Shown here: positions 6,001 to 9,000 of the stretch, in pieces
How the letters are laid out: the number at the start of each line of letters is the position of its first letter
Numbering within the stretch: position 1 is the first letter of the stretch
Source of the DNA: a virus
Taxonomy: Duplodnaviria > Heunggongvirae > Uroviricota > Caudoviricetes
Length of the DNA stretch: 64,000 nucleotides
IMG/VR virus record: IMGVR_UViG_2718217715_000005
Strand: one strand, 5' to 3'
Made by a program: the position numbers

Positions 6001-9000
6001 AATATCTGACGGCTCCCACCATTACCAGTGGCGGCAATCCTCCGGCATTTTCCCTGACATCAGACGGAAAGCTGACCGCTAAAAATGCGGATATCAGTGG
6101 CAGTGTGAATGCGAACTCCGGGACGCTCAACAACGTCACGATTAACGAGAACTGTCGGGTTCTGGGAAAACTGTCCGCGAACCAGATTGAAGGCGATCTC
6201 GTTAAAACAGTGGGCAAAGCTTTCCCCCGGGACTCCCGTGCACCGGAACGGTGGCCATCAGGGACCATTACCGTCAGGGTTTATGACGATCAGCCGTTTG
6301 ACCGGCAGATTGTTATTCCGGCGGTGGCATTCAGCGGCGCTAAACATGAGAGAGAGAGCATACTGATATTTACTCCTCATGCCGTCTGATAGTGCGGAAA
6401 AACGGTGCTGAAATTTATAACCGTACCGCGCTGGATAATACGCTGATTTACAGTGGCGTTATTGATATGCCTGCCGGTCACGGTCACATGACGCTGGAGT
6501 TTTCGGTGTCAGCATGGCTGGTGAATAACTGGTATCCCACAGCAAGTATCAGCGATTTGCTGGTTGTGGTGATGAAGAAAGCCACCGCAGGCATCAGTAT
6601 CAGCTGAATTTTATAACCCATATACGGGCGCCAGAAATGGCGCCTTTTTTATTGCAGAAAAGCGAGAGGTAATTATGCGTAAACTTTATGCCGCCATTTT
6701 GTCCGCAGCCATCTGTCTGGCCGTATCCGGCGCGCCTGCATGGGCGTCTGAGCAGCAGGCCACGCTGAGCGCGGGGTATCTTCATGCCCGGACGAGCGCT
6801 CCCGGTAGCGATAATCTTAACGGGATTAACGTGAAATACCGTTATGAATTTACGGACACGCTGGGGCTGGTGACGTCATTCAGCTATGCAGGAGACAAGA
6901 ATCGCCAGCTTACCCGTTACAGCGATACCCGCTGGCATGAAGATTCCGTGCGTAACCGCTGGTTCAGCGTAATGGCGGGGCCGTCTGTGCGCGTGAATGA
7001 ATGGTTCAGCGCGTATGCGATGGCGGGTGTGGCTTACAGCCGTGTGTCGACTTTCTCCGGGGATTATCTTCGCGTAACTGACAACAAGGGGAAAACGCAC
7101 GATGTGCTGACCGGAAGTGATGACGGTCGCCACAGCAACACGTCTCTGGCGTGGGGGGCTGGCGTGCAGTTTAACCCGACCGAATCCGTGGCCATTGATA
7201 TTGCTTATGAAGGCTCCGGCAGTGGCGACTGGCGCACTGACGGCTTCATCGTGGGTGTCGGCTATAAATTCTGATTAGCCAGGTAACACAGTGTTATGAC
7301 AGCCCGCCGGTTCAGGCGGGCTTTTTTGTGGGGTGAATATGGCAGTAAAGATTTCAGGTGTACTGAAAGACGGCACAGGAAAACCGGTACAGAACTGCAC
7401 AATCCAGCTGAAAGCAAAACGTAACAGTACCACGGTGGTGGTGAACACGCTGGCCTCAGAAAATCCGGATGAAGCCGGGCGTTACAGCATGGACGTTGAG
7501 TACGGTCAGTACAGCGTTATTCTGTTGGTGGAAGGGTTCCCGCCGTCACATGCCGGGACCATCACCGTGTATGAAGATTCTCAACCCGGTACGCTGAATG
7601 ATTTTCTTGGTGCCATGTCGGAGGATGACGTCCGGCCGGAGGCACTGCGTCGTTTTGAACTGATGGTGGAAGAAGCGGCGCGTCACGCTGAGGAGGCGAA
7701 GAAGAATGCCGGAGAGGCGGAGACGTCCGCGAGGAATGCCGGCATATCAGCCAGTCAGGCAGAAGAGAGCGCGGCAAATGCTGACACTTCAGCAGGGGAT
7801 GCATCGGAGTCAGCCCGGCAGGCGGCAGAAAGTGCAGCCGCTGCAAAGCAGTCAGAGGAGGCGTCCTCGTCCTCGGCCTCTGCGGCCGCTCAAAAAGCCA
7901 GTGAGTCATCACAAAGTGCAGCAGATGCTGAGTTGTCAAAAAAGACGGCAGAAAGTGCAGCCGGTAATGCAGCCAGGGATGCAACGACCGCAACAGAAAA
8001 AGCCCGGGAGTCAGCAGAAAGCGCACAGTCAGCGGAACAAAGCAGGATAGCGGCGGAAGAGGCCGTAAACCGAATCCCCACGGTGGTGGGGCCTCCCGGG
8101 CCAAAGGGGGAACCGGGTCCCGCGGGTCCTCAGGGGCCGAAGGGAGATAAAGGAGAGCGTGGAGACACCGGTCCGGCAGGGGCAACCGGTGAAAGGGGGC
8201 CGGCAGGTGATGCTGGTCCGGCAGGCCCGGCAGGCCCACAGGGACCGAAAGGAGAAACAGGTGCGGCTGGCCCGGTGGGGGCAACCGGACCTCAGGGGCC
8301 GAAGGGCGACCCGGGGGAGACGCAAATACGGTTCCGTCTGGGGCCGGGAAACATTATTGAGACAAACAGCCATGGCTGGTTCCCGGATACAGATGGCGCA
8401 CTCATCACCGGACTGACCTTTCTTGACCCCAAAGATGCCACACGGGTTCAGGGTTTTTTTCAGCATTTGCAGGTCAGGTTTGGTGACGGGCCGTGGCAGG
8501 ATGTTAAGGGGCTGGATGAAGTGGGCAGTGATACAGGCAGAACAGGAGAATGACATGAACATATTAAAAAAAATTATGCAGCGTCTGTGCGGTTGCGGAA
8601 AGCATGATGACCGTGAAAACGGGGAGTTACTTACAGCACAGCTGCGACTGGGACCGGCAGACATTCTGGAGTCCGATGAGAATGGTATTATCCCGGAGCA
8701 GGACAGGGTAATCACGCAGGTGGTGATACTGGATGCGGATAAAAAGCATATACAGTGAGTGGTGAGGCCGCTGCAAATCTGGCGTGCTGACGGGGAAATA
8801 TTGGCGGGATGAAATAGCCGACGGATTCACAAAAACCGGAGTCCGGCTCCGGTTTTTGTTGTCATGTCAGGGAGATGTTTGTTATGAAGCCCAGAGGAAA
8901 TATTTATCTGTATGAAGGAATATGGTAATGCCTGGATTAGTATCATATATATCATCGACTTCATTCGCGAATGAGATGGCGGAGATGCGTCAGCAGGTAA

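Follow-up and report, generated by a model that had tools for sequence, protein, structure and literature searches.

A GA-repeat insertion interrupts the tail-tip gene J of an Sp12-like prophage of Escherichia coli O157:H7

This study focused on the tail-tip gene J of a lambdoid prophage (prophage A) in the IMG/VR virus record IMGVR_UViG_2718217715_000005 (Caudoviricetes), of which a stretch of 64,000 nucleotides (nt) was analysed, referred to here as the window. The original prediction, made by reading the sequence alone, had placed a frameshift at a (GA)n run near the 3' end of this gene, and had left three readings open, namely a true inactivating slip, an error of sequencing, and a site of phase variation. 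The features of the locus are collected in Table 1. Positions 6340-6392 of the window read ctaaacatGAGAGAGAGAGcatactgatatttactcctcatgccgtctgatag, and the run itself is GAGAGAGAGAG, i.e., (GA)5G, with GCTAAACAT on its 5' flank and CATACTGAT on its 3' flank. The string GAGAGAGAG occurs only once in the window, where shuffled sequences give an expectation of 0.25. Both the position of the switch point and the two peptide strings that had been read on either side of it were reproduced from the sequence and its translations.

Removal of a single GA unit fused the two frames into one open reading frame (ORF) of 1158 codons with zero internal stops. In the window as it stands, the J frame is lost past residue 1076 (the break lies between residues 1076 and 1077, which by alignment is at about residue 1049 of the 1132 residues of lambda J), and the last 82 residues of the protein give way to 10 unrelated ones, followed by a stop. 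The mechanical ORF call at 6392..6607, which begins with a GTG start, falls within the stranded 3' remnant of J.

Table 1. Features of gene J of prophage A, in window coordinates
Feature	Position	Strand	Details	Evidence
Gene J of prophage A (Sp12-like), 5' reading frame	3129..6389	+	1086 codons: 1076 authentic J residues, 10 out-of-frame residues, then TGA	ORF list, translation, Pfam, annotations
(GA)5G dinucleotide run, site of the +2 insertion (one GA unit)	6348..6358	+	In-frame allele (GA)4G encodes E-R-E	Sequence, pattern search, repair, allele counts
Out-of-frame 10-residue tail and premature TGA (6387-6389)	6357..6389	+		Translation
Stranded 3' remnant of J in the shifted frame	6359..6607	+	Last 82 codons and the original stop	Translation, ORF list, Sakai annotation ECs_2233, alignment to lambda J and A8 gpJ
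Coding region of the C-terminal Ig-like receptor-binding domain	6210..6607	+	Repaired residues 1028-1158	Pfam PF12421

The protein obtained by this repair matched six Pfam families above cut-off: FNIII-A_GpJ, Phage-tail_3, Ig_J, Ig_J_second, Phage_Tail_Tip and PF12421. The last of these, which is the C-terminal receptor-binding domain of J, covered profile positions 1-135 of 135, and the final 300 residues of the repaired protein aligned to the end of lambda J (8xcj, 8iyk; E ~1e-97) and to 'A8 gpJ' (9wca; E 1e-118). Because the repaired C-terminus matches PF12421 in full and aligns to both of these proteins, the continuation in the other frame, as it had been proposed, represents true homology and not chance. 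Of the 131 residues that make up the receptor-binding domain, the first 49 alone stay in frame, and the other 82 are lost. The gene also occupies the expected place in a lambdoid tail operon (H-M-L-K-I-J-lom-stf), judging from the annotation of prophage Sp12 in strain Sakai together with the ORFs of the window; what it does not have is the single uninterrupted frame through the receptor-binding domain that characterizes the gpJ family, as the frame is lost at 6357 and a stop is reached at 6387. Taken together, these sequence features indicate that the gene is a pseudogenised member of the lambda gpJ/TipJ family.

Lambda gpJ is one of the nearest known counterparts (8IYK, 8XCJ/8XCK; PMC11101478). 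The window gene shares with it the domain architecture, the gene order (tape measure, M, L, K, I, J, lom, side fibre) and the alignment over the C-terminal 300 residues, but it specifies a receptor-binding domain of another type, its last ~110 residues are clearly diverged, and it is a pseudogene. In lambda, the Ig-like domain of J makes up the tip, which is trimeric and enters the LamB receptor with four loops (PMC11101478). With most of the corresponding domain gone, receptor binding should be abolished in any J protein made from the (GA)5 allele.

The window carries a second J copy, in prophage B, which had been described as intact, and this also proved to be the case: its ORF (54223..57753, with a probable start at 54274) is open through to a C-terminus ending in ...STAGISIS and a stop. 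It was considered as a comparator for the repeat but is uninformative, since its receptor-binding domain is of another type, with an insertion at the repeat position and no GA run there. In this second, Sp11-like copy the receptor-binding type differs both from that of prophage A and from that of lambda, and over the aligned region its C-terminus (~FPRT.. to ..AGISIS) matches 9wca, 'A8 gpJ 713', nearly residue for residue.

A segment of 701 nt around the run was 100% identical to many E. coli O157:H7 chromosomes. Strain Sakai has this stretch within 'prophage Sp12, lambda-like phage', where the annotation divides J into three fragments, each named 'phage host specificity protein' (ECs_2235/2234/2233), with lom and a tail fibre gene after them; the NCBI annotation pipeline (PGAP) labels gpJ 'frameshifted' in EDL933 and in many further records. 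Prophage Sp11 directly adjoins Sp12 in Sakai, which is consistent with the prophage B of the original prediction. By these matches, prophage A is the Sp12 prophage of strain Sakai, and the window as a whole is E. coli O157:H7 sequence. That J of Sp12 is disrupted was already known from the reference annotations and from a prophage survey published in 2009, but neither the genome annotations nor the available part of that survey (PMC2669165) names the GA repeat as the mutated site. The present analysis adds the exact lesion, one GA unit, as well as its near-fixation in the clone and the rare events of reversion and conversion described below.

Over an 8-kilobase (kb) comparison, eight genomes were 100% identical to the window (4276, 9234, 2159, 2149, Gim1-1, NE92, NCCP 13918 and 1130), while Sakai-type genomes showed 97.2% identity. 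The lower value is due to a recombinant block in the middle of J (4526-5981), where the divergence from the Sp12 J genes of Sakai and of NCCP 13946 is ~10%. The first ~300 nt at the 5' end of J differ in turn from the EDL933-type gene, and the exact mosaic of the window occurs in the eight genomes only. The host-specificity gene of Sp12 in Sakai is found at the same locus with an identical (GA)5G allele but, apart from the divergent block, it also carries a second frameshift that is absent from the window. This is a change from CCC to CC at window positions 4234-4236, shared by Sakai, NCCP 13946 and AC-5, which brings the first stop to codon 392; the window has an intact CCC, as does EDL933. 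A further lesion is seen in EDL933, TX 265-1 and strain 1613, in which the match to the window ends at 1118 (the gap spans ~1119-3128), so that just the first 363 nt of L are left and both K and I are missing; in one sub-clade an IS3 element lies in this gap.

The length of the run was surveyed across 5,426 complete E. coli genomes with 40-nt queries in which every 28-nt seed spans the run, making the matches allele-specific. The in-frame allele, (GA)4G, is widespread, occurring in 1,661 genomes (2,874 places) of many serotypes and also in other prophages of O157. The +2 shifted allele of the window, (GA)5G, was detected at 225 places in 216 genomes, nine of which have two such places, and the genomes were O157:H7 or O157-type among the matches listed. 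A -2 shifted allele, (GA)3G, was present in five genomes (six places), and a +4 shifted (GA)6G was found in none (0 genomes, 0 places), the best matches to that query being (GA)5G genomes with a 2-nt gap. In isolated phages and Shiga toxin (Stx) phage records this 3' end is present with an identity of up to 97.8%, and the annotation there shows a single, undivided host-specificity J. The window exceeds the widespread functional allele by one GA unit, and its allele is restricted to a single clone; its state is therefore derived, in agreement with the real inactivating slip that was among the options first proposed.

The same counts bear on whether the frameshift could be a sequencing or assembly error that hides a real gene in frame. 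Repeat indels are a common class of assembly error, and some lone odd variants (the 10-nt run of strain 1613, and AC-5 relative to AC-3) may be of that kind. However, the identical (GA)5G 40-mer is present in 216 separately deposited complete genomes, Sakai and EDL933 included, and in eleven IMG/VR contigs; eight genomes agree with the window at every position over 8 kb; and the reference annotations themselves show the gene split or frameshifted. An error as the source of the window allele is vanishingly improbable, and this option of the original prediction was set aside.

Programmed recoding, in which -1 ribosomal frameshifting or transcriptional slippage would yield some full-length J from the (GA)5 allele, is a further alternative. 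If the ribosome shifted by -1 at any point from 6348 to 6386, the C-terminus would be regained at the cost of one additional residue, and the local RNA folds somewhat better than shuffled sequences (6340-6460, z = -2.6), the GA run pairing with CUCCUCAUG. On the other hand, no slippery X XXY YYZ heptamer is present in the J frame between 6339 and 6389, where the codons are GCT AAA CAT GAG AGA GAG AGC ATA CTG ATA TTT ACT CCT CAT GCC GTC TGA. The run also lies within the predicted stem rather than 5-9 nt upstream of one: the first predicted hairpin (6345-6382) is that formed by the run and its downstream partner, and a second (~6384-6436) begins ~26 nt downstream of the run. The shift, moreover, is not conserved, the in-frame allele being that of 1,661 genomes and the shifted one limited to the O157 clone. 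Transcriptional slippage is known for long homopolymer runs and is not known for five GA units. Recoding at this site is accordingly very improbable, and the hairpins predicted at 6345-6436 are probably without function. The quasi-palindrome CATGAG...CTCATG was also considered as a template for the mutation, but correction from it would yield CATGAGGAG rather than an extra GA, and plain slippage would be the simpler route.

Among O157 genomes, the run at this locus is close to invariant. Of 224 genomes having this 3' end at 99% identity or more, 216 share a run of 11 nt. Eight matches at this level to the 701-nt region were without the (GA)5G 40-mer, and five of these were identified. Run lengths at the locus other than 11 nt include 9 nt in TX 265-1, 7 nt, i.e., (GA)3G, in NCCP 13946, and 10 nt in strain 1613. 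When a repaired 699-nt sequence was used as the query, two genomes ranked above all of those with (GA)5G. Across six aligned loci, the ~0.9 kb between 5982 and 6897 is invariant apart from the run, which is the most changeable site of that stretch.

Strain TX 265-1 has (GA)4G and a full-length J of 1158 residues. Nine other strains have the same derived IS3 insertion beside J and the whole 4.4-kb sequence, except that theirs is 2 nt longer; three of these (TX 376-2, 144 and MA11) were among the (GA)5G matches, at coordinates that agree. Because the nine relatives keep the additional 2 nt along with the derived insertion, TX 265-1 appears to be a revertant, unless its assembly is wrong. It lacks K and I, and L is truncated, so no tail can be built in this strain with the restored J. 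AC-3 and AC-5 also have (GA)4G, accompanied by two linked changes, C6335T and A6344G, which point to a short gene-conversion patch from another J copy. The J of AC-3 is intact, and that of AC-5 carries the additional CCC-to-CC frameshift. In PV15-279, an additional (GA)5G copy was found in another prophage, located beside tRNA-Ser and the hya operon and carrying tccP2; it is identical to the window only across ~6249-6712 (~460 nt), with diverged flanks. This suggests that the broken tract was copied between prophages, the lesion itself being spread by gene conversion.

Four non-O157 genomes have (GA)3G alleles. In three of them (SCU-484, C25 and UID2309220031) the allele is combined with the loss of one C from a C5 run (window-equivalent 6224-6228), for a net change of -3, and the frame is regained after ~41 shifted codons in the receptor-binding domain, where the shifted frame is open; PGAP annotates J as intact in two of the three. 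In FWSEC0001 and SCU-484 several adjacent genes are also labelled 'frameshifted', and the indels of these two genomes may be assembly errors. The six (GA)3G places include a second one in NCCP 13946. A tally of (GA)3G as independent slippage events was dropped, since three of the five genomes are frame-compensated and two have frameshifted neighbour genes. As far as they go, the (GA)3G cases indicate that the run can contract as well as expand.

The explanation we favour, with a probability of roughly 0.9, is that the window carries an inherited, inactivating repeat slip, the change from (GA)4 to (GA)5 having turned J of Sp12 into a pseudogene in O157:H7. Slipped-strand mispairing would have added one GA unit in the 3' part of J, in an ancestor of O157:H7, and clonal inheritance would have carried the insertion forward from there. 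The +2 shift removes most of the Ig-like C-terminal receptor-binding domain, in a prophage that would already have been decaying, and the repeat remains mildly prone to slippage, with occasional re-contraction, or overwriting by gene conversion from a paralogous J of the same genome. The mutation would be one step of neutral prophage decay, a view we take because the prophage is defective in other functions as well. The 2009 survey scored Sp12 as defective in the functions of repressor, integrase, recombination, portal and head and also in host specificity ('D'), and no excision, replication or packaging was detected (Asadulghani et al. 2009, PMC2669165). The further lesions at the locus, i.e., the frameshift at 4234-4236 and the loss of K, I and most of L, also fit neutral decay.

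Two observations weigh against an inactivating slip of this kind. TX 265-1 and AC-3 have a full-length, in-frame J at the locus, which suggests that the OFF state is not strictly irreversible, and the sub-lineage of the window keeps the 1076 codons upstream of the slip open. The second of these carries little weight, because O157:H7 is a young clone in which recombination exchanges this part of J. The open upstream codons, together with the near-fixation of the allele in O157:H7, could also be read as selection for the C-terminally truncated J itself, which might serve, for instance, as a tail tip that lacks the receptor-binding domain or might act together with a different receptor-binding protein. 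Fixation, however, is explained by clonal inheritance, and elsewhere in the clone sub-lineages have acquired a second frameshift, at codon ~370, or lost neighbouring tail genes, which argues that J is under no constraint. Nor does Sp12 make particles (PMC2669165), and a selected truncation is hardly to be expected.

A phase-variable (contingency) switch, in which repeat slippage turns J on and off, was the remaining option of the original prediction, and several features could be taken to fit it. The repeat unit is not divisible by three and lies inside the ORF; length variants occur within the clone at this very locus (TX 265-1, in frame, NCCP 13946 and strain 1613); TX 265-1 is nested among nine IS3-sharing relatives that differ from it by 2 nt only, which indicates that a reversion occurred; and (GA)3G alleles are found in four genomes outside O157. 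Yet the tract comprises five repeat units only, 216 of the 224 genomes have one length and none has (GA)6, and two of the genomes that depart from it have the putative conversion patch. Contingency loci differ between close isolates much more often. The revertant TX 265-1 is without K and I and has L truncated with IS3, which leaves its in-frame J unusable, and some variants come from assemblies with frameshifted neighbour genes, so their quality is doubtful. A switch would also require a functional system around it, and Sp12 is defective in integrase, repressor, portal and head, with no excision or packaging (PMC2669165). A dedicated switch is quite unlikely. The comparison of run lengths across isolates, which had been put forward as one way to check the site, shows a near-invariant tract with rare length variants; the run is mildly unstable, as any short repeat, at a rate that fits ordinary slippage in a pseudogene and not a phase-variation switch.

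The inherited slip can also be placed beside known cases of frame change. The contingency loci of Haemophilus, Neisseria and Helicobacter resemble it in that gain of a whole unit (in O157) or loss (in TX 265-1 and NCCP 13946) within an ORF shifts the frame, but the tract in Sp12 J is short, almost invariant, located in a defective prophage, and without any sign of selection for switching. Another likeness is offered by stf of laboratory lambda PaPa, which, as reportedly described by Hendrix and Duda in 1992, differs from that of Ur-lambda by a frameshift due to a 1-nt deletion, the phage remaining viable. There too, a small frameshift splits a lambdoid tail-fibre/host-range gene into two ORFs and is clonally propagated; the Sp12 case differs in being a dinucleotide gain in J, an essential gene, within a prophage that is dead for other reasons.

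A more far-reaching possibility is that the lesion is reversible at a low rate within the 'defective prophage pool' of O157. Back-slippage (TX 265-1) or gene conversion (AC-3) would regenerate an intact receptor-binding module at a silent locus, and the broken allele would also be copied to other prophages (PV15-279). Exchange between J paralogues would in this way keep host-range modules in store, switch them off and bring them back. We regard this as quite unlikely, although if true it would have consequences for which prophages can transfer virulence genes. By itself the lesion is ordinary and matters little. Its practical implication is that the Sp12-type J of O157:H7 is a genuine, clonally inherited pseudogene, which annotators should not 'correct' as an error. 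It also suggests that J paralogues within a genome swap short stretches of sequence, by which a lesion can be either repaired or spread, and in this it illustrates prophage-pool decay and recombination, a picture that is already accepted.

Two other features of the surrounding region were noted. A gap of ~340 nt (window 2787-3128), containing mechanical ORFs only, separates the end of gene I from the start of J; the I-J spacer of lambda is short, and much shorter than this. On the 3' side of the tail fibre genes, at ~8990-12200, the window contains genes or pseudogenes of nleG-family effectors and an insertion of ISEc8 (IS66 family), the transposase ORF of which lies on the minus strand at 10581..12119.

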